From contig JBAZZW010000002.1 of the NCBI GenBank assembly GCA_041658625.1, positions 538,851 through 602,850 of the forward strand: a stretch of 64,000 nucleotides of DNA, written 5' to 3'. Source of the stretch: Actinomycetota bacterium. GTDB lineage: Bacteria > Actinomycetota > JAHEXW01. Under the pieces are notes generated by a model. It was not told the origin of the DNA, searched no databases, and was given only the letters and a program-made list of their open reading frames with translations. This document shows positions 544-62,710 of the stretch, piece by piece. Within the stretch, counting starts at the first letter, position 1. Each line of letters begins with the position of its first letter. Position numbers and translations under genes: made by a program.

Positions 544-1065
544 TCAGCCTACATTAATTGTTTCGCCAAGGTAAATCGTATATTGGTTGTCGCCGTACTG
601 AATGACGACGCTACCAGTGCCTATCGACAGCAGCTTAAAGTATTCCGCGAAGGTGTCGCCGACTCTCAAGCCCTCGTATAAAGTCCCGTTGACTTCGATC
701 GCCGCGGACGCCCCAAGCGGAATCGTTACCAGTTTTACCGTCGCGGACCCGGTTGGGGCAGCCCCGGTTGTGCTGGTTGTCCCGTCTTTATTTCTCCCTA
801 CATTGCTGGGACTACTGGACGATCCGCCAACCAACGGAGAAAAGGGGTCCTTGTTCTCATAAATCTCGTAGCCCTCGATCTTCCCGGCGGGCGTGGGCGT
901 TGTCTGTTGGGTTTCAGCTTTGGTTTTCGACGACGGTGTGGTTTCTTTTTGAAACTCGCTTCCGGTCGGCGTGGCGGCCAGGCACCCGCCCAGCGTAAAC
1001 GATATTCCCAGCAGGGCGCAAATCAACCATATCGAGACAGTTCGCTTTCCGTTAACCCTGATCAT
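544..1065 (-). CDS. PilP-like lipoprotein (type IV pilus assembly)
   Basis: 173 aa; signal peptide with lipobox LGGC, Thr/Pro/Ser-rich linker, C-terminal beta-domain; lies directly after pilM/N/O-like genes. Confidence 0.5.
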   Translation of the reverse strand: MIRVNGKRTVSIWLICALLGISFTLGGCLAATPTGSEFQKETTPSSKTKAETQQTTPTPAGKIEGYEIYENKDPFSPLVGGSSSSPSNVGRNKDGTTSTTGAAPTGSATVKLVTIPLGASAAIEVNGTLYEGLRVGDTFAEYFKLLSIGTGSVVIQYGDNQYTIYLGETINVG

Positions 1066-1715
1066 TGGGCGGCTCCTGTCGATGAACCGCCTGCGCTAGT
1101 CGCGGCGCCTTGAGCCGATCCTGTCTCCCCTGTAGTTCCGCTGGGGGCGGCGGTTTTCGCGCCGGTAACGCCGGGGGAAATTATATATGCGTTGGCTTTT
1201 ACCGTTACCTCGATGTTCGGCAACTTAGCCTTGCCTTCCTTGACGTCGATACCGGTTACGTTGATAATCCGCTGTAGCTTCTCCAGTCTGTAGATGAAGT
1301 CAAGGAGCGAGAAGAAGTATCCGTCTATCTGCATTTCCATCGTCACTTCTTTAAAGTCCGTCTTCTGGACCGGATTCGAAGGTTTAATCGATAACAGCGC
1401 GATACCGGATTTTACTGAGACATCTTCAATCTGGACGAGCAAGGCCGGTAGTTCCGCGCCGCTTTCCGGTGCCTTCTTGTCCAAGCGCAAGAGTTCGTTG
1501 TCGGTTTTGCGGCTGGCTTTCTTGAGCTCTTCCAGTTGGCTGTATGTAGCCTTTGAGCTGTTTAGCTCGGTCATCGCCGACTGTTCCTCGACTCCCAGCG
1601 TTCCCAGCCGTAGTATCTGCGGAACAACAAAGAAACCGATAAACAAGAGCAGTATCGCCGCTAAGATTACACCGATCAATGCTATTTGTTGTTTTGGAGT
1701 CAGCTTAAAACTCAT
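1062..1715 (-). CDS. pilO: type IV pilus assembly protein PilO-like
   Basis: 217 aa; N-terminal TM helix, coiled-coil, periplasmic domain; 4-nt overlap with pilN-like gene. Confidence 0.65.
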   Translation of the reverse strand: MSFKLTPKQQIALIGVILAAILLLFIGFFVVPQILRLGTLGVEEQSAMTELNSSKATYSQLEELKKASRKTDNELLRLDKKAPESGAELPALLVQIEDVSVKSGIALLSIKPSNPVQKTDFKEVTMEMQIDGYFFSLLDFIYRLEKLQRIINVTGIDVKEGKAKLPNIEVTVKANAYIISPGVTGAKTAAPSGTTGETGSAQGAATSAGGSSTGAAQ

Positions 1716-2380
1716 GGCGTCGCCTTGTTTGTGGTCGAGGTTTCTTTGAACTTGGTCAAATAAACCGTCGTCTGAAACTCAATGACCTTTACCGGCTGCG
1801 CGGCCACGGCCGTAGGCGCGGACGTGGTTTCAGCAGCCAGCGTCTGTTCCGTCGCATAATCCAGCCATACGCCCCGGAACTGGTTAATTTCGTTCAAATG
1901 AACCAGCCATCTCGCGACCGCCGCGTGGTTAAACGCGTAACCGATGATCGTAATCGGAGGCTTGGGCGCGGTTTTCGCCGCGGCGCCGGAAGCTTCCTTA
2001 GCTGTCAGAATCTCGCCCAGGTCCACCTTGACGCTCTTTAACCAGATGTCGTTTGGCACGACCATGCTGATATCGTTCAGGATGCTCGACCATTGAACCT
2101 GGTTCTCGGTCATCTTTACGATAATCGCCTGGCGTTCGTCCAAGGCCTTCTTTCTATCCTGGTACGGCTTTAACTTCTCTGTATATTGCTGAACTTTAAC
2201 GTTTTCGCTTTTGATTATATCGACGCGCTCGCTGGCCATCATGGCCTGGGCTAACGTGATTAAATATACCGCTAGGGCAACCCCGAAGACCGCGGCGAAG
2301 ACGATTCCCATGAGCGCGATAATCCGCCGCGATTTATGTTTCTCAACTACTTCAGGTGGGATTAGGTCTATGCGGGTCAT
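1712..2380 (-). CDS. pilN: type IV pilus assembly protein PilN-like
   Basis: 222 aa; N-terminus MTRIDLIPPE then single TM helix, typical PilN architecture; overlaps pilM stop. Confidence 0.7.
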   Translation of the reverse strand: MTRIDLIPPEVVEKHKSRRIIALMGIVFAAVFGVALAVYLITLAQAMMASERVDIIKSENVKVQQYTEKLKPYQDRKKALDERQAIIVKMTENQVQWSSILNDISMVVPNDIWLKSVKVDLGEILTAKEASGAAAKTAPKPPITIIGYAFNHAAVARWLVHLNEINQFRGVWLDYATEQTLAAETTSAPTAVAAQPVKVIEFQTTVYLTKFKETSTTNKATP

Positions 2381-3498
2381 TTCTCGGTCTCCCGTAACGC
2401 CAATCCTATCGGCACGGCCAACGCCGGCTCGATTTCCTGGAACTCGGTTTCAGTCAGCTGCATTTTCCCGACTTTCACGTTCTGTAGGGGCATGCCGTAC
2501 CTGACATTGATCTGCAAGGCTTTTTCCAGTTCGTCTCGTAGCCCGCCGATCTTCGCCCCACGCCCGCTAAGGACGATTGATTCCGGCGGCTTGCACCCTG
2601 TCTGGTCCAAACAGTAGTCTATGGACCGGCGGATTTCCCTGACAAACGATGCGATCCGGTTGCGCAGAATCTCCTGGGCCGCTTCTTTCTTCTCCAGCGA
2701 AGGCTTGGGAATCGCGGGGTTTTCGCTTTCCGCTAGCGAAATCTTCAACTCCTCCGCTTCTTCCTCGGTGATATTCATGTTATCGGCCAGGGCTCTCGTA
2801 AAGTCGTTCCCGCCGAACAGAAGAATTCTGACGAAGTATGGCAGACCTTCCTCGACGATAATCATGTTGCTGACGCCTGCGCCGATGTTCAACAAGCAAG
2901 ACGTTTCCAGAGCTTCCTTGGCTTGTTCGTCGGATGGAAAAGCCGGCAGACGCGGAATCAACGAGCGCATAAGCGCGAATGATTTGACATCTATGGAGGC
3001 CGGGTACAGACCGGCGCCCGACAATGCTTCCACAAACGATTGGATCATTTCCCTCTGCGCTGCGACCAAGAGCACTTTGATGTTTTTCTCGTCCTCTTTG
3101 ACTTGATATTCCTTAAGGATCTCGAAATCGATAATGGTTTCTTCCACCGGCATCGGGATGTAGTCGGCTGCCTGGAATTTGATCGCGCCCTTGAGCTCTT
3201 CATCGCTCATTTGCGGCATATCGATAACGCGCACGATTACTTTTTGGTTGGCCACGCCGAGGACGATGTTCTGTTTCGGGAACTTGTTCTTAGCCCAAAG
3301 GTCTTTGAGGATGGCCGAAACCGCTTTGGCGTCGGCTATTTCGCCGTCGACAACCAGGTTTTCGGGAATGCGGACGATTCCGACCTTGTCTAATACCGGC
3401 GGTTGCTTGCCTGTTTGAATCTCCACCACGCGAATCGACCTGGTCCCTATGTCAAGACCTATGGCCTGCGTCGGTTTGCCTAATGAGAAAAGCGCCAC
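2377..3498 (-). CDS. pilM: type IV pilus assembly ATPase-like protein PilM (actin-like fold)
   Basis: 373 aa; N-terminal IGLDIGTRSIRVVE sugar-kinase/actin-like motif, PilM-like length. Confidence 0.85.
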   Translation of the reverse strand: MALFSLGKPTQAIGLDIGTRSIRVVEIQTGKQPPVLDKVGIVRIPENLVVDGEIADAKAVSAILKDLWAKNKFPKQNIVLGVANQKVIVRVIDMPQMSDEELKGAIKFQAADYIPMPVEETIIDFEILKEYQVKEDEKNIKVLLVAAQREMIQSFVEALSGAGLYPASIDVKSFALMRSLIPRLPAFPSDEQAKEALETSCLLNIGAGVSNMIIVEEGLPYFVRILLFGGNDFTRALADNMNITEEEAEELKISLAESENPAIPKPSLEKKEAAQEILRNRIASFVREIRRSIDYCLDQTGCKPPESIVLSGRGAKIGGLRDELEKALQINVRYGMPLQNVKVGKMQLTETEFQEIEPALAVPIGLALRETEK

Positions 3499-3499
3499 G

Positions 3500-3682
3500 T
3501 TAACCTCCGCGGGCTGCGTTTGATTCTTTGGAGAGATACTTGTTGACGGCTAGGGATTTAATACGGTAGCCGCGACCGACGCGAACTGCCGGAAGCTGCC
3601 CCACTTTGATTAGCCGGTAGACCGTCATCTTTGAAACACGAAGATGTGTCGCGACCTCAGATACCGTCATCAGCGTCTTCAT
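3500..3682 (-). CDS. excisionase-family helix-turn-helix DNA-binding protein
   Basis: 60 aa; LMTVSEVATHLRVSKMTVYRLIKVGQLPAVRVGRGYRI matches HTH_17/excisionase-type domain; 2 nt upstream of pilM. Confidence 0.6.
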   Translation of the reverse strand: MKTLMTVSEVATHLRVSKMTVYRLIKVGQLPAVRVGRGYRIKSLAVNKYLSKESNAARGG

Positions 3683-3736
3683 TAAGCCACCTCATGTGTA
3701 TTGCCTGCTCAAGCTACACTTAGGAATATTATCACT

Positions 3737-3817
3737 AGTTAACATTAGTTGTCAATCGTTACCAGTTCTTAACAACTGTATTACCTCGTTAACACGAGTT
3801 AACATCAGTAACATCGG
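3737..3817. promoter_or_regulatory. cluster of GTTAACA direct repeats (three copies at 10-bp spacing) upstream of HTH-pilMNOP operon
   Basis: GTTAAC at 3738, 3788 and 3798, GTAACA at 3809, plus GTTACC/TTAACA variants; sits 55-135 bp upstream of the 3682 start codon. Confidence 0.35.
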
Positions 3818-4126
3818 GCAATGCAAGTGAACACTTTAGTGTTTTCTTGGTTTTTTTATGAGCATTGCGGGGACGCCATATTAGATAGTAAGAGCTAAAT
3901 TCTTTCCAGCGGCCGGTTACCGCTGACCGTTGTCTGATTATTCTTCTCTTAGAATATTCGACAGGGCTTCCGTTGGCTGCATGGTGGTTCTTGAATTGGT
4001 CTATAAAGCTTTCATTCGCACCTGGTAACCTTTGCATCCTTCGTCTTCGAGTTTAGGTTCGAGCATCCCTTTCAGTTTTCAGATGCGGAGGGCTCACAGT
4101 CTCTTCAAACTTGGCATATTGCCTGG

Positions 4127-4591
4127 TTAGCTGCCTGTTGGATAAACCTTTATCCGGCCGATGCTTGTGGTTCTGATTACCATAGAGCGCTTGTTGACGA
4201 GCGCAGAGAACAAAAGCGGCACCCGTGCCCGACTCTCCACCTCAACATATACTTCAGTGTTAACAACTTTGACGTCTAACAGCTCCGCACCGCACAAACC
4301 ATCCAGGTTCTTCTCTACCCATTCCATGGCATCTTCATCGGAGGCATAGTTGTTTCGCGACCCGGATTCCGCCGCCTCACGTAGATCGATTTCCTCAGCA
4401 ACCTCACGCGCCGCGACGTCACTTGCCTTATATAGTTCCGCCTTAGCCGCCATCACCCGCCCGGCATCAATGCTCCACCCCATAAACAACAAAACCACCG
4501 GCATTATCGCCACAATCAAAACCGTAATTGACCCTTCTTGTGGCTTATGTTCTAAGTTCGTTCTCTTTTTACATGCATCAATTATTTTCAT
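4127..4591 (-). CDS. TadE/TadG-like pilus assembly (pseudopilin-like) protein
   Basis: 154 aa; N-terminal GSITVLIVAIMPVVLLFMGWSIDAGR...AAREVA resembles the TadE-like N-terminal domain. Confidence 0.45.
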   Translation of the reverse strand: MKIIDACKKRTNLEHKPQEGSITVLIVAIMPVVLLFMGWSIDAGRVMAAKAELYKASDVAAREVAEEIDLREAAESGSRNNYASDEDAMEWVEKNLDGLCGAELLDVKVVNTEVYVEVESRARVPLLFSALVNKRSMVIRTTSIGRIKVYPTGS

Positions 4592-4639: not shown

Positions 4640-5038
4640 CTAATGGAGATATTTCCTAAAGAGACTGCTAAGGTTGCCTAGCATCACGTCCGTGACCACC
4701 CGACTGTCTTTGTCTTCTATTTCTCTGTTAAAGGAGTGTATTACAAGAAATAGCAGCATTTCATTCCTTAACGACAATCTGACCTTGCGAACTCTATAAT
4801 AGATAAACGATCCCCTGTTTCTATAGGTAACAAATCCGGCTTTGTTCAGGTCGCTTAGATTCCGCGAAACTGTTTTAACAGGCCACCCGCCCCGAATGCT
4901 GATTTCACCAACAGTTAGCGGTCCTGTATTGTTGAGCATTTCAAGTATCTCCAAACGTTTTCTGAAGCCAAGGACTTTGAAAATATTCGCCAAATCATCA
5001 AGTTCGTTCTTCTTTGTCATTTTCTCCTTTGCAAACAT
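4640..5038 (-). CDS. ArsR/SmtB-family transcriptional regulator
   Basis: 132 aa; winged-HTH LEILEMLNNTGPLTVGEISIRGGWPVKTVSRNLSDLNKAGFV; alternative start at ATG 5020 with AGGAG RBS. Confidence 0.8.
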   Translation of the reverse strand: MFAKEKMTKKNELDDLANIFKVLGFRKRLEILEMLNNTGPLTVGEISIRGGWPVKTVSRNLSDLNKAGFVTYRNRGSFIYYRVRKVRLSLRNEMLLFLVIHSFNREIEDKDSRVVTDVMLGNLSSLFRKYLH

Positions 5039-5070: not shown

Positions 5071-5835
5071 TTAAAAACTTACACTTCCGGTGTCTTGGAG
5101 AGAACGTGCAAAAGGCAGTTCGGGGGCCTTCTGCCCGGTTTCATTTATGTTTACGCCACGGAATGAGTTAATCGGGATTTCAAAATAAACAGTTGCCGTT
5201 GAGCCGTCTATCGCGGTGATTTGGACATAGTGCGTGCCTTGACCGCCGAAATCATATTCGCCCCTGGCTGTTATGTTGTTTGATAGTTGCGGATCCGTGA
5301 ATTGTCCAGTCGCCAGCGTAACCGTGTAATGCGATCCGTTTCGATCCTGCCGCCCGACAACAGCGTACACTCGATAAGACTGGATTGGTTTGTTTGCGGA
5401 GAACGCGATATTTAGGTCTAGGTGGGCCGGTTCGTCATTTTGACTCTGCCGGCGCCCGTCTTCTGTTAAATAATGCCAGCGGGTAAAAACATACGGTGGC
5501 GACTTTGCCACAGAAACCGTCACCTGCAACGGTTCTGCCCAATACCCGCTGGCCGCCCACTCTTGATAGGTCTGCCAATATCCGCTTGCAACCCAGGTTG
5601 AATATGGCGCCCAAGCCCAGTAGCTTGTGTCCACCCACGTCCAGTAGCTCTTATCGTGCCATTGCCACCAAGCCCCGACCCAGCCGGCACCAGGGCAATA
5701 CACGTCGCTTCGATGCTTATGATACCCCCATGCATAAGCGAAATACATCGGCCCCCAATTCATGCCAATTAGGGAGTCATCCTGAGGAGCAGAAGAGATG
5801 ACTGGCGACGAGGGAACTCTCACGATTCTACTCAT
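5071..5835 (-). CDS. hypothetical protein with Trp/Tyr-rich repeats (SYW/GYW every ~8 residues) and a C-terminal beta-rich domain
   Basis: 254-aa longest ORF in the region; unusual composition; no family recognised. Confidence 0.4.
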   Translation of the reverse strand: MSRIVRVPSSPVISSAPQDDSLIGMNWGPMYFAYAWGYHKHRSDVYCPGAGWVGAWWQWHDKSYWTWVDTSYWAWAPYSTWVASGYWQTYQEWAASGYWAEPLQVTVSVAKSPPYVFTRWHYLTEDGRRQSQNDEPAHLDLNIAFSANKPIQSYRVYAVVGRQDRNGSHYTVTLATGQFTDPQLSNNITARGEYDFGGQGTHYVQITAIDGSTATVYFEIPINSFRGVNINETGQKAPELPFARSLQDTGSVSF

Positions 5836-6200
5836 TCAGCCACAATCGTGCCTTGAGAATCGCTGGACAGTGAGGCAATCGCTTATAGAATCATCCGAAT
5901 GCTTGCCGACAAGTTTAATCCGATGTTGGCTCCCCGGGTTGTATGTTTTTCGCACATTCCGAGCTTGCATAAGACAAACCGAGGTCGTCTTCGACGCATC
6001 TACGAAAAAGCATATCCTTAAAAATGCCAATTGCTGCTTCGTCAAAATACACGTTTTCACACCTTCTGCCCGATGCTGGGCAAGGAGGCAATAAAGAACT
6101 TGGACGCATTGATAAAAGAGAATAGCGAGAAATGCCTGGACGTTGCCTCATAGTAATTGGCTGCAAAATCGACAAACAGAACTTACATAATAATGCGAGG

Positions 6201-8945
6201 CTACTTGGGCGGTTTAGCTGCTTTCAGTCGTTGTACGGCCCACTCGTTTGAAAGATCAAGCGATTGGTTTAGCTCGAACGAGGTGTCAGCTCGTTTCTTC
6301 TCAGCATTTCGAACTTCTTTGACGGAATCGTAGAACTGTTTGCCAATCAGACGTTGTTTCTCAATTGGAATTACCGGTACTGGTATTGCTCCAAGATCAT
6401 CCCATTCAACGCGGTGTCTACTAATACCTGTGGATTGAGATAAAAGGCGGGCTCGGACTTCGGGGCTTCGAAGAAATCCCCATAAAAACCAAACATCGAA
6501 TCTTGCGTCCTTAAGTCGCATAATAGTAAACTCCGACGAGGCAATTACACCCGAGAGGTCAGCAGGAATCACGGCAATGGAACCGAGGGCAGCAGCAATG
6601 TTGCTTGCTACAATATCATTTTCTTTTGGGTTTTGAACTTTACTATATGTAAGTTCTTCTCCGAGCGCCTTATCGCCTTCCTCGGGGATTCCGTCATATC
6701 GAACACGCAGTAATGTGTTTAGTTTGCTAGGCTCGTTTTTCGGATTGAAGCCCTCATTTTCAATCTTGTCGACTATTGTGTGTAGGGGAACAACATTAAG
6801 GCCATCGGCACGCCATTTGTCAGAAATGTCATTTGGGCGGGGGAGACACGACTTAACATCAAGACGATCTCCAATAAGGCCGCTCCTGACCCGCCAAGGG
6901 CCCTTTATCCCCTGCATAAAAAGATTAAAAGCCTCAAAAAGGTCCCTAGTTTCGTCTTCAGCTGCGGTACGAGCTTCAGCTGCTTTACTAGGCCGTGTCT
7001 TCATGGGCACATCATCAAGGCCTACGTAGCGACATTCATACATAAAGGCATCCGGCTGACTTTGCTTTTTCGCGTCCCGCCGAATGAGGTATAGGACCGA
7101 TGTCTTTGCACGAGCTCCAACACGTTGAAATGCGTCCCCAGGGATACTGATTACGGCACGAACTATAAAGCGATCCCTTATAAAATCTCGTGCGAAACGA
7201 TTATTTGAGGAACTCAAGATTGAGTCGTCAATTACAGTTACGAGTTTACCGCCTGGCTTAAGAATGTCTGCATATCGTTCTAAGAACATAATGCTCGACT
7301 TTAATGATGGGCGTTGTCTATTTGTTTTCCCAAAGCCAAAGGTCCTTAGAGCGTACTGGTTGAGAATTAAAGCCTCGTCTGGCAGCGTCTCTGAGTAATC
7401 CATCGAGAATGGTGGATTTGTTAGAACGATATCGAAACCTCGTCTGCTTCCATTTGATATTTCGAAAATAAGTTTCTGAAGCTCTTCGAGCTCAAAACGC
7501 GATTGCTGATCATCTCCGACACCATGAGACACTGTCTTATCAAGGCTGTCCGCCGCATATATCCGGCTACCGCCGTCTCCATGGAGATACATGTTGATTC
7601 GTGAAATCTTTGCTAATGGTGGTTCTTTACCTGCATCAATGCCAAATATGGAATCGTTGGCGACCCTTTCTAACAAGGCGTTTTGTTCGCTGTCGCTCAG
7701 AGAAGTGTTAGATCGAATTTGATTCCGCATGTCGGTGAGGGCTTCAATAAGGAAGCCTCCTGAACCACAACAGGCATCAATTACATGGTCAATATGGTCT
7801 TTTGATGCAATTGGGGCAGCGAGTTGTTCCATCATTTTTACAATAGACCTGGGTGTAAAGTATTGCCCCAAGGCTTGTCCCCGCATGGTGGCACTTAAGA
7901 ACGTCTCAAACAAACGACCGTTAAGGTCCTCATCAATGCTGTACAAATCAAGTGATTCTAGTTTCGAGACAACTTGTCTGATTGTTCCTATCTGGAGTTC
8001 AATATGGTCATTTGGCCCAAATATCGGTTTCTTCTTTCCTCGGGCAACGTCCTCTCTAAGAACTTCATTAAGCCTGGCAAAAAGGGTCTCATCAACTGGA
8101 TTCTTTACCCCCTGTGACTGCAGAGCATCAATCCAATGCGTTGAGAAGATAACATTGTCCCGTGGTATTGGTTTCTCGTCTCGTAGTAAAGGCCCCATTA
8201 TGGGGTCATCGTGTAGTTTTCGATCCTCCCAAAGCTTTACGAACATTATTTTTACGAACTCAAAGAAAGCAGGTTGAGGATTCATCTTCTCAGCTTTCCA
8301 TATAAGTCTATGACAGCTGTTAAAAACCCTTTTGATCTCCTCAACAGAAGGCTTTTTCATTAGAAAGCGTGGCTTTTGTATCGAAGGCTTCAGGCCTTGC
8401 CTAATAGTAGTAGCCTGAAGTAACGAGCGTACCGAAAAGAAGCTTATGTTGTCATCAGCAAAGTCGGAAAATTCCAGGCTGATTATAGGCTTGCTCTCAT
8501 CCCATTTATAAAGGTCAAATGCGAGACCATTAGTTATTACGTAGTATGAACAGGGGTTTTGATTGCTAAACTCTTGATTAAGCCCTAACGCATATCCAGC
8601 ACCTTGAAAAGCCCACTTGTCGATATCTTCCCCTGGTGATTTTGCATCGATTAGCCACATAGGCTTCTCGTTACAGTAGATGACGTAATCTGGCCTATAG
8701 CCTTCTTTTTTTCTGCCTCTGGCTACAACAATCTCTTTAAGAGATACCTTTGGCCGGATTTCAGAGTCTTTGTAGCCGAGATCCTTTAGCAAACGATTTA
8801 TAAAGAATGTCTCGACTGAAGACTCATCAACTAAAACCGCTTTATCACAGTATTTGTTTGACTTCGCGTCCTTGCCAGCGCGACTCAAAGAGTCTAGGAG
8901 CGTAGGGCGAAGTAGGTCACTTTGCGGGGTTTTTGACTGTTTCAT
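6201..8945 (-). CDS. single-chain restriction-modification enzyme: PD-(D/E)xK nuclease + gamma-class N6-adenine methyltransferase + HsdS-like target-recognition domain (Type IIG-like)
   Basis: 914 aa; N-terminal RPDYVIYCNE...WLIDAKSPGE nuclease core; MTase motif I VIDACCGSGGFL then motif IV NPPF; C-terminal IPVPVIPIEKQRLI typical of HsdS TRD ends. Confidence 0.75.
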   Translation of the reverse strand: MKQSKTPQSDLLRPTLLDSLSRAGKDAKSNKYCDKAVLVDESSVETFFINRLLKDLGYKDSEIRPKVSLKEIVVARGRKKEGYRPDYVIYCNEKPMWLIDAKSPGEDIDKWAFQGAGYALGLNQEFSNQNPCSYYVITNGLAFDLYKWDESKPIISLEFSDFADDNISFFSVRSLLQATTIRQGLKPSIQKPRFLMKKPSVEEIKRVFNSCHRLIWKAEKMNPQPAFFEFVKIMFVKLWEDRKLHDDPIMGPLLRDEKPIPRDNVIFSTHWIDALQSQGVKNPVDETLFARLNEVLREDVARGKKKPIFGPNDHIELQIGTIRQVVSKLESLDLYSIDEDLNGRLFETFLSATMRGQALGQYFTPRSIVKMMEQLAAPIASKDHIDHVIDACCGSGGFLIEALTDMRNQIRSNTSLSDSEQNALLERVANDSIFGIDAGKEPPLAKISRINMYLHGDGGSRIYAADSLDKTVSHGVGDDQQSRFELEELQKLIFEISNGSRRGFDIVLTNPPFSMDYSETLPDEALILNQYALRTFGFGKTNRQRPSLKSSIMFLERYADILKPGGKLVTVIDDSILSSSNNRFARDFIRDRFIVRAVISIPGDAFQRVGARAKTSVLYLIRRDAKKQSQPDAFMYECRYVGLDDVPMKTRPSKAAEARTAAEDETRDLFEAFNLFMQGIKGPWRVRSGLIGDRLDVKSCLPRPNDISDKWRADGLNVVPLHTIVDKIENEGFNPKNEPSKLNTLLRVRYDGIPEEGDKALGEELTYSKVQNPKENDIVASNIAAALGSIAVIPADLSGVIASSEFTIMRLKDARFDVWFLWGFLRSPEVRARLLSQSTGISRHRVEWDDLGAIPVPVIPIEKQRLIGKQFYDSVKEVRNAEKKRADTSFELNQSLDLSNEWAVQRLKAAKPPK

Positions 8946-9354
8946 GTGTTCATTATCATTTGACGGAAGAACTGCGTCAAGGTTCGGCCAAACACTGTCC
9001 TATATAGCGGTCAAGTGACAGACAACTAGACAACCCATTGCTAGGCGCATTGTTCATAGAAAAGGTCAGCCAAGTAAGTTATTTAATTTCTATCTAATAA
9101 GCCATGGCAAAACCTCATCACTCTTCGGTAATCATAGAGAATGTTCGAAGACGCTCCGGCGGCCGCTGTCGCGTCACTGTAAAGTGTCAACAGAAACGGG
9201 GGAACTCCAACTCCAGTTTGTTGTTTATTGTAGCCGAGTGGGCTACGAGTCTTCTTCAAAAGAATATTCCATATACATAGCGTTTCCTCAGCTCTTGAGG
9301 TTTAGCACTTGAAAGTACATAATGAACCTAATCTTGTCTACTGGGGAGTTAATT

Positions 9355-11817
9355 ATGCCTTTGAAGATTAAGCTTAAGAATCAGTTTCGTGAGCCCCTCA
9401 ATACGGATGCGGGTTTCGTCGGTCGTGAAGACGAATTGGCGCGACTCATTACGATATTTCAGCAGAGGCAAGCCGCAACAGTCCTAGTCGCTGGACATCG
9501 AGGGGTAGGCAAGAGCGCACTGGTTGACGAGGCCTTAAAACGCTCGCAAGCCGACAAGAAAAAGCGCGTAGTTGCTCGATTGACGTTGCCCCATCTATCG
9601 CCCGGTAGTTCGGATATTCGAGATCAAATACTTCAATCGCTGGCGCGCTCGCTATATTTCTCTATCAAAGACGACAATAGCGTTCCAAAACCTCTTCGCG
9701 AAGTCAGCAAGGTTCTATATGATAAGACCTATTTGAAGGAACTACACGAGCAGACTGGGGTCGAGTCATTATTCGAAACCGAAGCTAAAGCCCGATCAGC
9801 GACAAAGACAAAGACTTCAATCGCTTTTGGCAAGATAGTTTCACTTATTGTCGGAACGTCGCTCTCTGGTGTGGTTGCTATCGGAGGAATCGCGGTTATT
9901 TCGAGAATCGTTACGGATCATGGCCTGAGTTGGGGAATAGTGGCTAGCGCTGTCGTGTTGGTTACGGTTGTGCTTTCAGCTTATCAACTTAATCTCGAAA
10001 AAGAGGATGAGAATACGACTATTGACAAGGCAACGGCTTCTAACAAGATAAACCGAATCGGTCTTTACGACGTATCTCCCGAGACCCTTGAATTTGAGCT
10101 TCGCGATCTTATAAAGGAGCTTGCAGCTAAAGGTCATCCTTGTGTCTTCGTGATTGACGAACTTGATAAGCTAGAGGCTTTTCCCAAAGGCGTTCAGCAG
10201 GACCCTGAAAGCGCTGGGCAGGATTTTAAAAAACACATCATATTCAGGATTTTGTCCAGTTTGAAAAACTTCTTTACATTGGGTTCTGGAATATTTGTGT
10301 TTATTTCAGGGGAAGATTTCTACGCCCAACTAAATGGACCCATTGAAACAGACATCTATTCGTTAGCTCATACCTTGTTCACTGATCAGGTTTTTGTTCA
10401 GGTTCTCTACTATCAGGACGTGGAGCGCTTGATTGAGCAGATTATTGCCGAAACGCCTGCGGACGAGGAGGAGTACCATCGCTTCAGGAACTATTTGTGT
10501 TGGCGCTCTCGAAATCATGTGTTTGATCTCTTATCACTCATCGGGGAATTTGTCAGATTTGATAATCGAGGCCAGCCATTTCTTTGGGGAGAGAAATCAG
10601 GAGCTCAGGACGGGCATTGGCATGAAGGCAATCTACCGACGAACTGGGAAGTTGCTGCTGCTCTGCAGAAAATAGTGGGGGCCGCTTATGATGAATCGGC
10701 GAGGCCGTCTGCTGGAGAGCAGCGTTTCAATCAAGCATTGTGGCTTACCCAACTGCGAACGGCCTATGATCTGTTCGCTGATATGCCCGTGAAGGTGCCA
10801 GAGGCTGGTTTTGAGTTGCCTGCTGCTTATGCCTGGGTAAAGAATCTAACGCCAAACGATCTTGATGACCTTGCTGGCGCAGTCGAGCGTCTGCTGGCTA
10901 AACTTGAGAGGTATGGTGCGGTAAGAGTAGTCTCGGAGACACTCACTCCCGAGACAGAAGGCCAGCCCGATGTCTCTGTGACTAGCTATACACTAGTTGA
11001 AAACCCACCTTATCCGCCCACGTCAGTCAACTCTGAAGTACAAAGAATCCCACTTGAGGATTATTATCTCGATATCGGGGCGAAAGCGGAGCACCTCGCA
11101 AAGAATCTATCCGTCTTGGGCATTGAGACACCGCAGTTATCCGATGAAATCAACGCTGTCGTCGATCTAATACTCGCAGTCAAGAACATTTCGCCACGAA
11201 ACACAGTACCGAGAAGCAGGGTCAAAGAAGGAATTAAACGAGCAGACGTTCTTGCCGAACAGATGGTCGAGACCGGCGTTAATGCAGTTATTACAAAATG
11301 GGCGGCGGATCACGGGATGCAGCTTAGTCAGGCACTTTCAGAAATTGAAAACAAAACTGGCACGCCCTGGCAAGACTCGCTTACCAGTGAGTTCCCAGAG
11401 TTTGTTGAGGCTTTGGACATAAGCGAGGTTGAATACTTCATCATCGGAGGTTCAACTTCCGAGAACCAGGTTTTAGTGCTGAATAATCGACGAGATCGTG
11501 ATTTGACGGCAGTAAGCGAGGCTTATTCAAAATCCTTGCCTGGTGAAAAGGGTCGCGATAGACGGAAACAACGTCTTCCGATAGTTGTAGTGAGCCAGTT
11601 GTCTCCCGGCAAAAATCCTCAGATTCCACGCGAAGTCGTTGAGGTTATCCAAGAAACCGAAGGTTGGTCTTTCTTCTCTGCCGTACTTGGACTTTTACCG
11701 AAAACGAAGAGAGTCAAAACGAATCTGGCAGGATGGACTGTCTTTTCTCTCGATCCTAGCTTGGATAATTTGGAAGACCTACCAGCTGAACTAGAAACGG
11801 TCTCATACATTACATAG
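9355..11817 (+). CDS. KAP-family-like P-loop NTPase with two TM helices inserted between Walker A and Walker B; ~550-aa uncharacterised C-terminal region
   Basis: Walker A VLVAGHRGVGKSAL (about 9484-9510), two hydrophobic helices (about 9814-9997), Walker B CVFVIDELDKLE (about 10135-10170). Start taken at ATG 9355 (GGGGAG RBS) rather than track start 9322. Confidence 0.65.
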   Translation: MPLKIKLKNQFREPLNTDAGFVGREDELARLITIFQQRQAATVLVAGHRGVGKSALVDEALKRSQADKKKRVVARLTLPHLSPGSSDIRDQILQSLARSLYFSIKDDNSVPKPLREVSKVLYDKTYLKELHEQTGVESLFETEAKARSATKTKTSIAFGKIVSLIVGTSLSGVVAIGGIAVISRIVTDHGLSWGIVASAVVLVTVVLSAYQLNLEKEDENTTIDKATASNKINRIGLYDVSPETLEFELRDLIKELAAKGHPCVFVIDELDKLEAFPKGVQQDPESAGQDFKKHIIFRILSSLKNFFTLGSGIFVFISGEDFYAQLNGPIETDIYSLAHTLFTDQVFVQVLYYQDVERLIEQIIAETPADEEEYHRFRNYLCWRSRNHVFDLLSLIGEFVRFDNRGQPFLWGEKSGAQDGHWHEGNLPTNWEVAAALQKIVGAAYDESARPSAGEQRFNQALWLTQLRTAYDLFADMPVKVPEAGFELPAAYAWVKNLTPNDLDDLAGAVERLLAKLERYGAVRVVSETLTPETEGQPDVSVTSYTLVENPPYPPTSVNSEVQRIPLEDYYLDIGAKAEHLAKNLSVLGIETPQLSDEINAVVDLILAVKNISPRNTVPRSRVKEGIKRADVLAEQMVETGVNAVITKWAADHGMQLSQALSEIENKTGTPWQDSLTSEFPEFVEALDISEVEYFIIGGSTSENQVLVLNNRRDRDLTAVSEAYSKSLPGEKGRDRRKQRLPIVVVSQLSPGKNPQIPREVVEVIQETEGWSFFSAVLGLLPKTKRVKTNLAGWTVFSLDPSLDNLEDLPAELETVSYIT

Positions 11818-11994
11818 CTATGTTGCCTAGCATTCTTACAACAGATTTCGAAACAGCAATGAAAACTATCGAGTGCATCTAATGTTCATCGAATAAGTCA
11901 CCGCAAAACTCCGCTACTCCTCGTTAATCACAGAGTACTCTCTTTAAAGACAATCCGCAGACAAGGACAGCCATCGGGTGATATAGTAATACAT

Positions 11995-12059
11995 TGTTGG
12001 TTGCGCTGGAGGGACTACGAATCCGTAGGTTGGAGGTTCGGCTCCTCTCGGGCGCGCCA
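11995..12059 (+). other. tRNA-like 3' fragment (T-arm-like GGAGG-TTCGGCT-CCTCT, acceptor-like CGGGCGC, G, CCA); no matching 5' acceptor strand
   Basis: Read directly; antisense ORF 11924..12130 translates to the RSRTSNLRIRSP-type peptide typical of tRNA-derived DNA. Possible degenerate tRNA or integration-site remnant. Confidence 0.25.
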
Positions 12060-12161
12060 CATCTCACCTGGGCAACAGATGATGATTTCTTTAATTGACA
12101 AGGTATTATCTGGGGCAATCTAATACTCATCTAATATTGATTGTCGCCGACAAGGAAGGCA

Positions 12162-13028
12162 ATGATATACAAAGGCTTGTACTCTCAGCGCAAGAAAATA
12201 AACCCTGATGAAGATGTTTTTTCATATTCGCTCCCTGCCCCAGTAAGAGCTGCAATATTTAATATTATTAAAAACACCAATCCGAATTGGTCATCTCACG
12301 GCAAAACCCGAAGGCCTTTAAAGGCCATTGTTAAGGATTTTTGTGAAAATCATTTATTTCACGGGATTACACCAAGAGCAGAAGACGCTTTTGCATCTGG
12401 GTACCAATACGCCGACCACCAACTTACCGATGACCTTAAGGCATGGATCCAAACGACTCCACAAGAATCTTTGTTTGATTTTATTGAAGTAGCAATTATT
12501 AATATGAGCGAGTCTAATTTAACGACGCTTGTTAAAGATATTAATGATTTGTTTCAAAGGGAAATGATTGGATTTGAGATTGTAAACGGAAACATTATTG
12601 ACAAGTCTGATGAATTCCTTCATCAAGAAGTTGTTCTGCAGCCAATTCTTGGGCTAAAAGCAGGAGGATTTGAAAAAGCCGAACAAGACTTCATGAAGGC
12701 ATTGCAGGAATATGCCCACAAAGATTATGCGGGAGCCCTTACAAGTGCTAATACTGCGCAGGAAAGCGTTATGAAGAGGATTCTTGGAGTCGAAAAAGGT
12801 GTGTCAAGTGATTTGGTTAAGACATTAGTTGAAAGGGGCATAATCCCTTCATATATGCAGAATAAAATGTTACTGCCCGTTTCGATAAGAAACAAAGATA
12901 GCGACGCACACGGCAGGCTTGATCCAATTGACGTCACGCCGGAACTAGCTCAATACGCGATTCATTGTGTCGGGGCTAATGTTGTGTTCTTGCTCAAAGT
13001 TACGAATATGGACGGCACCCAACAATAG
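12162..13028 (+). CDS. hypothetical protein with C-terminal HEPN-like Rx6H motif (candidate abortive-infection/RNase-type effector)
   Basis: ATG 12162 preceded by AAGGAAGG RBS (track start 12141 is TTG); C-terminal SIRNKDSDAHGRLD fits the HEPN Rx4-6H motif; AT-rich gene. Confidence 0.45.
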   Translation: MIYKGLYSQRKKINPDEDVFSYSLPAPVRAAIFNIIKNTNPNWSSHGKTRRPLKAIVKDFCENHLFHGITPRAEDAFASGYQYADHQLTDDLKAWIQTTPQESLFDFIEVAIINMSESNLTTLVKDINDLFQREMIGFEIVNGNIIDKSDEFLHQEVVLQPILGLKAGGFEKAEQDFMKALQEYAHKDYAGALTSANTAQESVMKRILGVEKGVSSDLVKTLVERGIIPSYMQNKMLLPVSIRNKDSDAHGRLDPIDVTPELAQYAIHCVGANVVFLLKVTNMDGTQQ

Positions 13029-13650: not shown

Positions 13651-14472
13651 TTAACTTGTTACTAATCCGCCGTAGCCAACGACACTCGCCGTATCCATGC
13701 TGAAGTCGGCGCTGGTCGCGTACTTAATTAGCTCCGCCTTGGTGGCGCCCAGTTCTTTGGCCGCGTATAGCATGATCGCCACAGGTCCTACTCCGCACAT
13801 AGTGATGTCGTTTTCATAGACGGTCTGAAGCAGAAATTCCGGATCCAAGGCCAGAATCGCGTCTATCGCCAGCTTGTCCAATGATTCGGCAACCGATAAA
13901 GGCTCATAATGGGTGAAATCAGTCGATGCGACGATTAAGACGTCTTCTTTTTCCTGACGGATCGCCTCCGCGATGGCGTGCCCAACCTCCCGGTAGACGG
14001 TTATGTCAGGGAGTCCCTTAATAGCAACCGGCACGAAGGTAAAGTCATTACCGGTTATCACCTGCAGGAAGGGCAACTGAACTTCAACGGAATGCTCCAG
14101 CCGATGAGCGTCATAGCTGACTTTGATGTTCTTGCTGTTGGCCATCATACGCGCGGCCAGCGCTTCGTCTATGTCTGCGTTTCCCAGTGGGGTCTTCCAG
14201 GTCCCCGTGTCTTCGATTGAAATCGGGAAGCCGAACCCTGAGTGATTAGGCCCGATAACAATAAACCGTTTTGGAGGCTCGATCGCTCCATATACGCTGC
14301 CGGCAACCGGGCCGGAATATTCGTAACCCGCGTGAGGAACGACGATCCCTTTGGCTTTTACTTTCGACTCTCGCTCGGCTTGTGCCTTTAGAAGCTTCTT
14401 GACGTCCCTTGTCAGCCCTTCTTCGTAACCCAAGTAGAACAGTCCGGCCGCGTAAGGTGTCCGCTTATTCAT
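13651..14472 (-). CDS. AmmeMemoRadiSam system protein B (MEMO1-family)
   Basis: 273 aa; motifs VVPHAGYEYSG, HSVEVQLPFLQ, STDFTHY, CGVGP. Confidence 0.85.
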   Translation of the reverse strand: MNKRTPYAAGLFYLGYEEGLTRDVKKLLKAQAERESKVKAKGIVVPHAGYEYSGPVAGSVYGAIEPPKRFIVIGPNHSGFGFPISIEDTGTWKTPLGNADIDEALAARMMANSKNIKVSYDAHRLEHSVEVQLPFLQVITGNDFTFVPVAIKGLPDITVYREVGHAIAEAIRQEKEDVLIVASTDFTHYEPLSVAESLDKLAIDAILALDPEFLLQTVYENDITMCGVGPVAIMLYAAKELGATKAELIKYATSADFSMDTASVVGYGGLVTS

Positions 14473-15382
14473 TGGTTGGGTTCCCCCTCCCTACGTTCAT
14501 CATGGCAATATAGTCTCCGTCAATCGATTTGCTGACGAGTTTCGCCATTTCAAGTACCACCAAAATACTACTTACTTTTCCACATTGCAAGCCCGTTTCA
14601 TAAATAATTTTTGTTATCGCTTTTGGAGTTCCTTCTATCGCAGATAACACGGCATTTTCTTCTGCTGTTAGAGTTCCTCTAAAATGACTAATATCTACTT
14701 TGCCTTGTCCTTTTTCTGATTTGCTTGTAGGTATTTCAAGTTCTTCCAGGATGTCCTCGGCGGATTCAACTAAACAGGCTCCTGCTTTTAGAAGCTTGTT
14801 TGGAGTTGCGCTGTTCCGACTGGTAACTGATCCGGGTAGCGCGTAAACGTCTCGACCCTGCGACAAGGCCATATCAGCTGTAATTAGCGTCCCGCTTCTG
14901 GCCGCGCCCTCAACGACCAAAACGCCTATGGACAATCCGCTGATAATCCGGTTTCGCGAGGGAAAATGGTCGCCGCGAGGTTGGGTACCCGGGGGATGCT
15001 CACTTACAAGAGATCCGGCCGAAGCGATCGCTCTTTGCAGTTTCCGGTTGACTGCCGGGTAGTAAACGTCTGCTCCGCAGCCAAGGACGGCCACGGTTCC
15101 GCCTCCGCCGTCCAAGGCGCCCCGATGAGCGGCGGCGTCAACACCTTCTGCCAGACCACTAATTATCAACATTCCATTTTCGCTTAACTCTCGAGAGATT
15201 GAGTAGGCCATATCAAGCCCGTACTTAGTCGCCCTTCTGGAGCCCACAACAGCAAAACCGGCCCGATTGTCCCTGTTAACTGTGTTGATAAGATTCCCGA
15301 CAACATAGAGTTTCTCCGGCGGATCAGGAATCAGTCTCAGCATTTCCGGGTACCGCGTATCGGTTTTTCTAAGAATCATCAA
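14465..15382 (-). CDS. dprA: DNA-processing protein DprA (Smf family)
   Basis: 305 aa; Rossmann-like core VVGSRRATKYG...SGLAEGVDAAAHRGAL...VAVLGCG. Confidence 0.85.
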   Translation of the reverse strand: MMILRKTDTRYPEMLRLIPDPPEKLYVVGNLINTVNRDNRAGFAVVGSRRATKYGLDMAYSISRELSENGMLIISGLAEGVDAAAHRGALDGGGGTVAVLGCGADVYYPAVNRKLQRAIASAGSLVSEHPPGTQPRGDHFPSRNRIISGLSIGVLVVEGAARSGTLITADMALSQGRDVYALPGSVTSRNSATPNKLLKAGACLVESAEDILEELEIPTSKSEKGQGKVDISHFRGTLTAEENAVLSAIEGTPKAITKIIYETGLQCGKVSSILVVLEMAKLVSKSIDGDYIAMMNVGRGNPTNE

Positions 15383-16921
15383 CTAAATAATCCTTACCTC
15401 TCTATCAAGCGCCCGATATTGAACAGCCTCCGCGATATGTTCTATGCGTATGTCGTTTTCGCCAGCCAGATCCGCGATTGTCCGCGCGAGGCGCTTAACC
15501 TTTGAATAAGCCCGCGCAGTCATGCCGAACCGATCAATCGCTTGACCCAAGAACTCTTGTGCCTGAGAATCAAGACGGCAGAATTCACGCATCATTCTCG
15601 GTTTAAGGCGCGCGTTAACCCTAACGCCCGTTCCTTTCATTCTTTCAATCTGCCGCCGTCTGGCTTCGACCACCCGCGCCCTTATGCACCCAGAGGCTTC
15701 TCCATCCTGCTCAGACAACATTTGTTCCTTGCTGACCCTTCCGATCTGAACATGCATGTCAATCCGGTCTCTTAGCGGCCCGCTCATTTTTGAGCGGTAG
15801 TGTCTTATCTCTTGCGGCGTACAATCACAATCCCTAACGGTATCGCCAAGAAATCCGCACGGGCAAGGATTCATAGCGGCTATTAACATGAATTCGGTCG
15901 GGTAATCCACGATGCCTGCCGCGCGTGATACTGTTACCCGGCCGCTTTCAATCGGCTGCCTCATGACCTCTAGTACATGCCTTTTAAACTCGTTCACCTC
16001 GTCCAAGAAGAGAACTCCGTTATGACTTAAACTGACCTCGCCCGGCTTTGGCACTGTTCCGCCGCCGATTAATCCGATATCCGAAATCGTGTGGTGCGGG
16101 CTGCGGAACGGCCGTTCCGTAATTAGCGGACAATCCGCTGTAAGCATTCGCGCCGTACTGTAGACTTTTGTCGTCTCGATAGCCTCTTCGATGTCAAGTT
16201 CCGGCAGAATTCCTGGAAACGCTTCTGCCAGCATAGTTTTTCCAGATCCTGGCGGACCGAACATAAGAAGGTTATGTCCGCCGGCCGCGGCTATTTCCAT
16301 CGCCCGTTTGGCCTGGTCTTGACCGCGGATCTCGCACATATCTTGAGATTCCGTCGACATATCTTTCAACAGCCGTTCTACGTCAATCTTCACCGGCTTT
16401 ATGCTCGACTCGGCAGATAAAAACGTTGCGGCTTCTAAAAGATTGTTCACGGGGATAACATCGACTCCCCTGACAAGCGCGGCTTCCGGCGCGTTTTCTG
16501 CCGGGACGATAATCCCTGCGCGTCCGGACCCCCTGGCATATAGAGAAAAAGGCAAAGCTCCGGCAACTCGTCGTACAGATCCATCCAGAGCGAGTTCTCC
16601 GACAACAACATAGCTGTCAGGCTTTTTTTGCTTAATTTGCTTTGTGGCTATTAAGATTGACAAGGCGATCGGCAAATCGAAAGATGGTCCTTCCTTACGA
16701 AGATCAGCGGGTGCCAGGTTTACCGTTATTCGTCGCTTGGGAAATATAAACTCCGAATTTGTGATACCCGCCTTAACGCGCTCCCTTGATTCCCTAATTG
16801 CCGTGTCGGGTAGGCCGACAACGATAAATCCGGGAAGCCCGCCAACGACATGCGCCTCAACCTCTACCCCGCAAGCGTCTATCCCAATGACAGATGATGA
16901 TGTGATTCTAGCGATCATCAA
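15383..16921 (-). CDS. comM: YifB/ComM-family Mg-chelatase-like AAA+ ATPase
   Basis: 512 aa; N-terminal Lon-like domain, Walker A GPPGSGKT, Walker B VLFLDE, C-terminal ChlI-like region. Confidence 0.9.
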   Translation of the reverse strand: MMIARITSSSVIGIDACGVEVEAHVVGGLPGFIVVGLPDTAIRESRERVKAGITNSEFIFPKRRITVNLAPADLRKEGPSFDLPIALSILIATKQIKQKKPDSYVVVGELALDGSVRRVAGALPFSLYARGSGRAGIIVPAENAPEAALVRGVDVIPVNNLLEAATFLSAESSIKPVKIDVERLLKDMSTESQDMCEIRGQDQAKRAMEIAAAGGHNLLMFGPPGSGKTMLAEAFPGILPELDIEEAIETTKVYSTARMLTADCPLITERPFRSPHHTISDIGLIGGGTVPKPGEVSLSHNGVLFLDEVNEFKRHVLEVMRQPIESGRVTVSRAAGIVDYPTEFMLIAAMNPCPCGFLGDTVRDCDCTPQEIRHYRSKMSGPLRDRIDMHVQIGRVSKEQMLSEQDGEASGCIRARVVEARRRQIERMKGTGVRVNARLKPRMMREFCRLDSQAQEFLGQAIDRFGMTARAYSKVKRLARTIADLAGENDIRIEHIAEAVQYRALDREVRII

Positions 16922-17368: not shown

Positions 17369-17815
17369 TTAATTAAGTCTAGCGGCGTATTCCTCGAGGG
17401 TCATTATGTCGGTGAGACCGCGGACGACCCTGGCGAGCTTTTTATCCGCTGTTATAAGTCGGAGTCCTTCAAGGTCGGCTTGGGCGACGAAGTAGGCGTC
17501 ATAGACTGTTATGCCCGCCTGCATCGCTAACTCGATCGCTACGTGCAAAACATTTGAGTCAAATGCTATAGTTGGCAGGCCTTCGTCTTGAAGAGCTTGA
17601 ATCGCGCGATTAATCTCTCTTGGCTTGTCAATACTCGACCATCGCAAACCATTCGCGATTTCATAGAAAGAGAGCTCGGTAATAGCCGTTAGGATTCGGC
17701 CTTTGTTGATGGCCGCTTTAAGCCATAGGGCCTGATAAGAGTCTTCTTCCTCAAGGAACCATTTTATTAGTATGCTTGAATCCAAGAGAATAGGTGTGCT
17801 GCTTTTATTTGCCAA
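17369..17815 (-). CDS. vapC: PIN-domain toxin VapC-like
   Basis: 148 aa; N-terminal ILLDSSILI strand with conserved Asp, later acidic residues (DAYF, ITAD); overlaps upstream antitoxin by 11 nt. Confidence 0.7.
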   Translation of the reverse strand: MANKSSTPILLDSSILIKWFLEEEDSYQALWLKAAINKGRILTAITELSFYEIANGLRWSSIDKPREINRAIQALQDEGLPTIAFDSNVLHVAIELAMQAGITVYDAYFVAQADLEGLRLITADKKLARVVRGLTDIMTLEEYAARLN

Positions 17816-59864: not shown

Positions 59865-59988
59865 AAACATACCCTCTCCACTCAAGAACCCCCCCCTTTT
59901 TTTTGAGCTCGCAAAATATTCTTCGAGCGAGCGCTAATTACGAGCTTGCCCTGAGCTAGTCGAAGGGTCGAGAAGGGAGGGCGCCGCT

Positions 59989-60159
59989 CGCTGGACAAAC
60001 CCGGCTATGCTCTTTAATATTGTTTAAGTGCGAATACGGGTGATTAGCTCAGGGGGGAGAGCGCTTCCCCTGACACGAAACTCGTGTACCATGCCCAAGC
60101 CCCATCTCATCTGCAGGTATAACACTCTTTTGGAATCCGCCGTCGCTATGTAAGTGCAC
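59989..60159 (+). repeat. ~170-bp direct repeat, copy 1 (contains tRNA D-arm-like TAGCTCAGGGGGGAGAGCGC)
   Basis: Aligned by eye with copy 2 at 62542..62710; high identity over most of its length with a few indels. Confidence 0.6.
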
Positions 60160-62453: not shown

Positions 62454-62541
62454 CGACTCTTTGGCTTATCTTAAAAGTTCACTTCGATTTGGGGAATATC
62501 TTATAGATTTCTGACACCGCTATGTTCGCGAAGGATTTGCC

Positions 62542-62710
62542 CGCTGGACAAACAAGCCTATGCTCTTTAATATTGTTTAAGTGCGATTACGGGTGATTAG
62601 CTCAGGGGGAGAGCGCTTCCCTGACACGGAATTCGTACACTGACTTCATTCCCCTTCCCATCTGCAGGTATAACACTCTCTGGGAATATATAGCGCGTCC
62701 GTAAGTGCAC
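62542..62710 (+). repeat. ~170-bp direct repeat, copy 2
   Basis: Aligned by eye with 59989..60159; followed at 62738..62793 by a tail element that also occurs at about 5925..5980. Confidence 0.6.

Follow-up and report, generated by a model that had tools for sequence, protein, structure and literature searches.

The locus considered here raises the question of whether a run of short direct repeats in front of a pilMNOP operon is a regulatory site and, if so, which protein reads it and to what effect. It lies in a window of 64 kb (the whole stretch of DNA analysed, 64,000 nucleotides), which derives from the metagenome-assembled genome of an uncultured member of the Actinomycetota and is chromosomal in character, with housekeeping genes such as those for aroC, DprA, ScpA/B and tRNA synthetases. 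The operon occupies the minus strand and consists of a gene for a small helix-turn-helix (HTH) protein, pilM, pilN, pilO and a gene for a 173-aa protein, an order that is identical in all orthologous loci (Table 1). Little has been explored of how Actinomycetota regulate type IV pili: we found a single published layer, control by WhiG and c-di-GMP in Rubrobacter and Actinoplanes (PMC8325347, PMC13595943), in papers whose text lacks terms for the HTH gene, pilM or BldC, and searches of the literature for the HTH-pilM pairing or for repeat arrays (excisionase family with pilM, BldC with pili, pilM with regulators of Actinomycetota) found no description of either. An HTH protein acting through the array would add a second conserved regulatory layer to pilMNOP, besides WhiG.

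Nine repeat units in a 10-bp register

The original prediction had drawn attention to three hexamers with 10-bp periodicity, and to two further copies, upstream of the operon. These are present on the plus strand (GTTAACA exactly at 3738, 3788 and 3798, GTAACA at 3808, and GTTACCA at 3758), the array to which they belong does lie 5' of the operon on the minus strand, and the periodicity extends farther than had been proposed. Read in the direction of the genes, nine TGTTAAC-like units, which we number U1 to U9, follow one another in a 10-bp register whose sole exception is the U1-U2 step (Table 1). A two-unit pattern, GTTAACANNNGTTAACA, with no more than 3 mismatches, is matched 12 times in the window against 2.7 matches expected, a number that none of 100 shuffles attained; 9 of the 12 matches fall within 3727-3804. 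The dinucleotide TG recurs in the array at lags of 10, 20 and 30 (5, 5 and 4 occurrences vs ~0.4 expected; 0 of 2000 shuffles). Among 12,776 sliding windows of 120 bp, taken on both strands of the 64 kb, the array ranks first (score 14; mean 0.88, sd 1.15), and with a position weight matrix (PWM) derived from the orthologous units the sum over three consecutive units reaches 30 at the array, as compared to a null maximum of 18.4. No other array rises above the null by this matrix, either elsewhere in the window or in the orthologous loci of 3-6 kb: isolated matches at 451-467 and 4258-4265 are inside coding sequence and below the null. Periodicity was measured by autocorrelation and PWM in place of Tandem Repeats Finder, which called no repeat because the units are short and the 3-bp spacers between them are unrelated or variable.

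The units are spaced at 10.0 bp, vs the 10.5 bp of B-DNA, so that a phase difference of about 0.4 turn builds up from the first unit to the last. Thus, of the helical phasing originally attributed to the repeats, the strict 10-bp register stands, but the phasing itself is approximate. Two open reading frames of the region, one of 82 aa (3789-4037, minus strand; no family match) and one of 44 aa (3696-3830, plus strand), are not called in the orthologous contigs and were treated as spurious.

Table 1. Features of the HTH-pilMNOP locus and of its upstream region; positions are those of the window.
Feature	Sequence or form	Position	Strand	Remarks
Array, putative operator	nine TGTTAAC-like direct repeat units, U1-U9	3728-3813	-	sequence, periodicity, ortholog register, PWM
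Distal block, U1-U3	ATGTTACtgaTGTTAACtcgTGTTAAC	3788-3813	-	abuts the sigma28-type −10; best-conserved consensus units; alignment consensus CCGATGTTACAGATGTTAACTTATGTTAAC
U1	TGTTACT	3813-3807	-	9 bp to U2
U2	TGTTAAC	3804-3798	-	
U3	TGTTAAC	3794-3788	-	
U4	GTAATAC	3784-3778	-	weak unit
U5	TGTTAAG	3774-3768	-	
U6	TGGTAAC	3764-3758	-	
U7	TGACAAC	3754-3748	-	overlaps −35
U8	TGTTAAC	3744-3738	-	within sigma70-type promoter spacer
U9	TGATAAT	3734-3728	-	overlaps −10
Predicted −35, sigma70-type	TTGACA	3750-3755	-	overlaps U7; promoter scan, 10-11/12 matches
Predicted −10, sigma70-type	TAATAT	3726-3731	-	with upstream TG, extended −10 TGATAATAT (3734-3726); overlaps U9
Sigma28/WhiG-type promoter match	−35 CTAAA (3839-3835), 16-nt spacer, −10 CCCGA(T) (3818-3814)	3814-3839	-	directly 5' of U1
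Leader block	TTGAGCAGGCAA	3701-3712	-	between sigma70-type −10 and Shine-Dalgarno; conserved in near-clade orthologs
Shine-Dalgarno of HTH gene	GAGGTGG	3687-3693	-	sequence; kept in orthologs
HTH gene, proposed binder		3500-3682	-	60 aa; HTH_17/excisionase-family winged helix
pilM		2377-3498	-	starts 2 bp past the HTH stop codon; Pfam PilM_2, E 1.1e-56
pilN		1712-2380	-	Pfam PilN match
pilO		1062-1715	-	Pfam PilO match
PilP-position gene		544-1065	-	173 aa; position in operon
Distant-clade 9-bp array	unit form TGTGGCAGA			

Relation of the array to two predicted promoters

The array sits downstream of one predicted promoter-like element and atop another; both relationships, like the number of units, go beyond the original prediction. 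The second element is a predicted strong sigma70-type promoter with an 18-bp spacer and the TG of an extended −10 in the promoter scan. The last three units, U7 to U9, overlap respectively its −35, spacer and −10, and the other six units fall between about −40 and −100 relative to it. Its −35 hexamer is invariant in all orthologs, 12 of which have it 70-73 bp away from the ATG, and the extended −10 is kept as TGATAACAT, TGATAATAT or TGATACTAT in most, with TGTTAACAT in L098. Since TTGACA and the extended −10 TGATAAT themselves resemble the repeat unit, it may be that U7 and U9 belong to the promoter and do not serve as binding sites. U8 is kept as (A/T)GTTAA(C/T) in most near-clade orthologs and is degenerate in three; it is thus conserved although promoter spacers normally vary freely. 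An operator of the MerR type, located in the spacer, was considered and rejected: the spacers, of 18 bp in this locus and of 17 bp in the distant clade described below, are shorter than the 19-20 bp of MerR-type activation, and the unit is an asymmetric direct repeat, not a palindrome. The conserved leader block downstream of this promoter is out of register with the array.

The first element, CTAAA-N16-CCCGAT, agrees with the pattern of sigma28/WhiG-dependent promoters, taken here as a −35 of xT(C/A)Ax (TAAA), a spacer of 15-16 nt and a −10 of GCCGA(TAA), less than 200 bp from the start codon. Because this pattern is weak when considered alone, it is the conservation of position that constitutes real evidence: the element is found at −146 to −157 in 10 of the 13 near-clade loci, and reads GCCGATAA in L097. 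WhiG promoters have been mapped inside the type IV pilus clusters of Rubrobacter, and the element fits the published sigma28/WhiG consensus used for Actinomycetota (PMC8325347, PMC13595943); its presence 5' of the array suggests that pilMNOP is under the control of WhiG, and so linked to c-di-GMP, as has been published for Rubrobacter. No WhiG gene was seen in the 64-kb window. The transcription starts predicted for the two elements are near 3719 and near 3803.

Conservation of the array in near-clade orthologs

Twelve orthologous HTH-pilMNOP loci, in which the HTH protein is 70-98% identical and the upstream neighbours differ, were aligned by anchoring them on the −35. The repeats might have been absent from orthologous promoters; they are conserved in all 12, in the same 10-bp register, while the 3-bp spacers drift. 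The information content is 0.36-1.2 bits at each of positions 1 to 7 of the unit, as compared to 0.16-0.24 bits at the three spacer positions, and the autocorrelation of TG at lags of 10, 20 and 30 has z-scores of 17, 15 and 13. Two loci (L090 and L091) are shorter by exactly one 10-bp unit, and phase is therefore preserved across the indel. The units are also asymmetric: T1 is conserved but its palindromic partner, position 8, is not, and A6 is much stronger than T3. This asymmetry, together with the non-palindromic units of the distant clade, argues for a directional reading of the array as direct repeats.

In the window, a TadE/Tad-like pilin-type gene (4127-4591, minus strand) and an ArsR-type HTH gene (4640-5038, minus strand) are the nearest genes upstream of the intergenic region, which measures 444 bp. 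This pair is found in L084 and is absent from the other orthologs, and the ArsR-type protein is therefore not a conserved partner of the array.

The product of the first gene resembles BldC

The original prediction had named the small excisionase-type protein encoded downstream of the repeats as their candidate binder, and on indirect comparative evidence it is still the best one. With 60 aa and an HTH_17/MerR N-terminal-type domain as its only domain, it belongs with the stand-alone MerR-like winged helices of ~60-70 aa. The matches to Pfam HTH_17 (PF12728; E 1.2e-14, 54.7 bits, cutoff 27) and to TIGR01764 (64.7 bits, cutoff 28.8) are above cutoff, while that to the NCBIfam family HTH_BldC (NF033787; 21.7 bits, cutoff 77) is below. 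An AlphaFold2 model (pLDDT 86) displays the succession strand, helix, helix, two-strand wing, helix. Profile search and Foldseek both give as best PDB matches the BldC-DNA complexes 6AMA and 6AMK (rmsd 0.9-1.5 Å, 36-38% identity); with the AlphaFold2 model the top seven Foldseek hits are BldC chains, and RacA, Pukovnik Xis and RdfS come next in these searches. Since the protein scores below the NCBIfam cutoff for BldC, we claim for it a BldC-like way of working but do not count it as a BldC; such behaviour is an extrapolation from the modelled fold and an identity of ~37%.

The likeness to Streptomyces BldC consists in a small stand-alone MerR-like winged helix devoid of dimerisation or effector domain. 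Arg30 of BldC, which contacts a guanine, aligns with the invariant R23 of the HTH protein, and His46 of the BldC wing corresponds to Tyr39. BldC binds 9-bp direct repeats, variable in number, as head-to-tail multimers, tolerates degenerate units and distorts the DNA (Schumacher et al. 2018, PMC5859096). There are differences too: the BldC unit is AATTxxxx(C) at 9 bp, vs TGTTAAC at 10 bp here; footprinted BldC sites comprise 2-4 units, vs nine contiguous ones here; and BldC acts globally in the regulation of development, in contrast to the one array found here, which is adjacent to the gene of its proposed regulator.

The excisionases lambda Xis, Pukovnik Xis (4J2N) and RdfS (8DGL) share with the HTH protein the domain family (TIGR01764/PF12728) and the fold. 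Lambda Xis oligomerises head-to-tail on tandem sites. The same has been described for RdfS (PMC11963761). These proteins act in recombination, whereas for the HTH protein we propose promoter control, in a setting with no integrase, att site or mobile-element context. A function as excisionase or recombination directionality factor was rejected: there is no integrase in ~13 orthologous loci, whose neighbours are pilMNOP and variable chromosomal genes. Comparable by its description is Gp36 of mycobacteriophage D29, which is small and MerR-like, associates weakly with itself, and recognises direct repeats as a repressor of the genes downstream; it is phage-encoded, with GC-rich repeats and no link to pili (PMC12266134).

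Distant loci carry arrays with a 9-bp period

With a profile of the HTH protein we retrieved 80 actinobacterial loci, in 46 of which pilM is immediately downstream of the HTH gene, in some cases after two tandem HTH genes; in more than 50 sampled loci a chromosomal pilMNOP operon begins with the HTH gene. The distant HTH-pilM loci are GC-rich and carry 3-11 tandem units of TGTGGCA type (consensus ATGTGGCAG) with a 9-bp period; the autocorrelation of TGT at lags of 9, 18, 27 and 36 has z-scores of 59, 35, 28 and 23. Their promoter is homologous, TTGAC-N14-TGTTACGNT with a 17-bp spacer, and this spacer holds a unit of the clade's own type, GATGTGGC, at the position that U8 has in ours. In 21 of 23 distant loci the array is 20-64 bp downstream of the sigma70-type promoter, vs upstream in the near clade. 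The frame of the units relative to the HTH start varies and stop codons are often found within them; since the reading frame varies, these are not coding repeats.

Arrays of at least 4 units are present in 38 of 53 pilM-linked HTH loci, vs 1 of 34 loci with paralogs not linked to pilM (Fisher p = 5e-11) and 1.1% of shuffles. The single exception, L010, keeps the HTH gene and the array but has an aminopeptidase gene in the place of pilM. As this is the only locus that retains both without pilM, the association of the array with the HTH gene is not fully separable from one with pilM. A metagenome scan with PilM for pilM operons devoid of the HTH gene returned one unrelated locus.

The clades also differ in the protein. 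The sequence is RVS(K/R/T)M, with wing RVGRGYRIK, in the clade with 10-bp TGTTAAC units, and RVSNM, with wing RVGKNYRIR, in that with 9-bp TGTGGCA units; in a subclade with GTGAC units the wing is RVGKGYRIR. Unit sequence and period track residue 18 and wing residues 37-38 between clades, a suggestive relationship which is, at the same time, confounded by phylogeny.

Two tandem paralogous HTH_17 genes precede pilM in many of the distant-clade loci (L006, L013, L014, L017, L020, L026, L028, L030, L037, L068, L070, L072, L075, L080 and L082). A GC-rich inverted repeat, for example CCCTGGGACTCCAGGG, is located between promoter and 9-bp array, just past the −10, in L013, L020, L037, L080 and L082. 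In the stretch 10-110 bp upstream of the HTH start (L006-L083, for example L020, L026, L068 and L082), the 9-bp period keeps all ATGs of the array in one frame, and there is often a short Met/Trp-rich ORF (for example MWQMCYMWKM followed by a stop) that ends within the last unit, shortly before the HTH gene begins. This ORF may encode a leader peptide, or may be no more than a Shine-Dalgarno-like end of the array; its frame relation is not constant across loci.

Proposed function of the array

On balance, we incline to the explanation that the array is the operator at which the BldC-like HTH protein, encoded by the first gene, acts on its own operon, and that it serves cooperative negative autoregulation. 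The sequence of events that we infer, as regards binding, stoichiometry, head-to-tail geometry and direction of regulation alike, would be as follows. Protomers of the HTH protein would bind one to each 10-bp unit, all in the same orientation and head-to-tail. Nucleation would take place on the consensus units, those of the distal block (U1-U3) and the one within the promoter spacer (U8); cooperative contacts would then extend the filament over the degenerate middle units U4-U7. By way of U7-U9 the filament would cover the sigma70-type promoter from its −35 through the spacer to the extended −10, and by way of U1-U3 the −10/start region and the early transcribed region of the sigma28/WhiG-type promoter. 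As the HTH protein rises, transcription of HTH-pilMNOP would be turned off from both promoters, with a cooperative threshold.

At the array the HTH protein probably represses rather than activates, because units occupy the spacer, −35 and −10 of a promoter that is near consensus as it stands, and because the array of the distant clade falls within the transcribed leader; the direction is nonetheless uncertain, since BldC both activates and represses (PMC6428758). That the protein is instead an activator or architectural factor, whose filament would bend the DNA and recruit or wrap RNA polymerase, with positive autoregulation and a bistable pilus switch as the outcome, seems to us unlikely. The six units at about −40 to −100 do occupy a typical activator position, and BldC, for its part, causes strong bending of DNA and is an activator at 91 direct targets (PMC5859096, PMC6428758). 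Such a role is, however, at variance with a unit placed in the promoter spacer and with U7 and U9 overlapping the −35 and −10; a promoter with 10-11 of 12 matches should need no activator, and an array located in the leader, 20-64 bp downstream of the −10, would suit a roadblock.

A different class of explanations takes the array away from the HTH protein, which would have another job, and assigns it to another trans-acting factor, for example a response regulator of the OmpR/PhoB type that reads one-turn direct repeats; we consider this improbable. Sites of the OmpR/PhoB family typically consist of tandem direct repeats at 10-11 bp, the near-clade spacing fits, and the unit contains TTAACA when read on the plus strand. 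On the other hand, the loci have no conserved response-regulator gene in their vicinity, and their upstream neighbours differ between orthologs; the 9-bp period and GC-rich units of the distant clade are unlike one-turn spacing; 9-11 contiguous units would be unusual for such regulators; and the arrays track the HTH subfamily. The analogy with response-regulator arrays made in the original prediction is therefore weak, and that with iterons did not hold: iterons are typically of 17-22 bp and are found at replication origins, whereas here 10-bp units stand in a chromosomal context and no rep gene is conserved nearby. What the array shares with both kinds of site is tandem direct repeats about one helical turn apart.

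It is also conceivable, but very improbable in our view, that the repeats act in RNA, the UGUUAAC or AUGUGGCAG units binding an RNA-binding protein or encoding a leader peptide that tunes translation of HTH-pilM. The transcript would start from the sigma28-type promoter here and from the sigma70-type promoter in the distant clade: an array downstream of a promoter is indeed common to both clades, and the one-frame AUGs and frequent short ORFs of the distant clade are in line with a leader peptide. The evidence against is of several kinds: the fold of the leader RNA is not significant (z = −0.99) and Rfam has no match at gathering score in the window (only noise with E>4 in 3450-4150); in the near clade a 10-nt period scrambles any reading frame; three units are upstream of the predicted start of the sigma70-type transcript; the frame relation to the HTH gene varies among distant loci; and the adjacent gene encodes a DNA-binding fold. 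The actinobacterial 'excisionase' motif of Weinberg 2007 (PMC1950547), a hairpin of 10-15 bp, is unlike the array. Finally, it would be far-fetched to dispense with a dedicated binder and ascribe the array to intrinsic curvature, to an UP-like element or to decayed duplicates of the extended −10/−35 at 10-bp spacing: TGTTAAC does resemble both TTGACA and TGnTAnnnT, and the likeness of the distal block CCGATGTTACAGTTGTTAAC to the spacer and −10 of distant-clade promoters suggests that it arose by duplication, but curvature needs phased A-tracts, absent here and in the GC-rich distant units, position-specific conservation with free spacers and loss of a unit with retention of phase point to sequence-specific recognition, and 9-bp arrays recur in a clade of different base composition.

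If the array is an operator of the HTH protein, the binding mode of BldC would extend to a new subfamily and to a new biological process, and the 9-bp and 10-bp periods would be two natural variants for the study of filament register. A broader proposal, which we put forward only tentatively, is that a BldC-like filament switch, conserved across much of the uncultured Actinomycetota, gates the pilus genes by means of an array of variable length, placed between or downstream of WhiG and housekeeping promoters, whose period and unit have coevolved with residues of the wing and of the recognition-helix entry. Were this so, the family would represent a natural series for understanding how head-to-tail winged-helix filaments set the spacing of their protomers.

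Other features of the window

Genes for DprA (14465-15382) and for a ComM-like ATPase of the Mg-chelatase family (15383-16921), both on the minus strand and ~11 kb from pilMNOP, hint, in the company of pilus genes, at natural competence. A defence-type cluster (5071-13028) is found upstream of the pilus region; it comprises a 914-aa enzyme of N6_Mtase/Eco57I type (6201-8945, minus strand), an 831-aa STAND/AAA_16 ATPase (9322-11817, plus strand) and a protein with an AbiJ domain (12141-13028, plus strand). A gene for a PIN-domain protein is located at 17369-17815. Toward the far end of the window, two direct copies of an element of ~150 bp (59986-60136 and 62539-62687, plus strand), 93% and 77% identical to each other in its two halves, flank a 2.5-kb segment in which an ATPase gene of AAA_14/DUF4143 type is found (61203-62453). 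The element is in part similar to the 5' end of a tRNA (GGGTGATTAGCTCAG), no tRNA being detected there, and the pair may be the scar of a small insertion.
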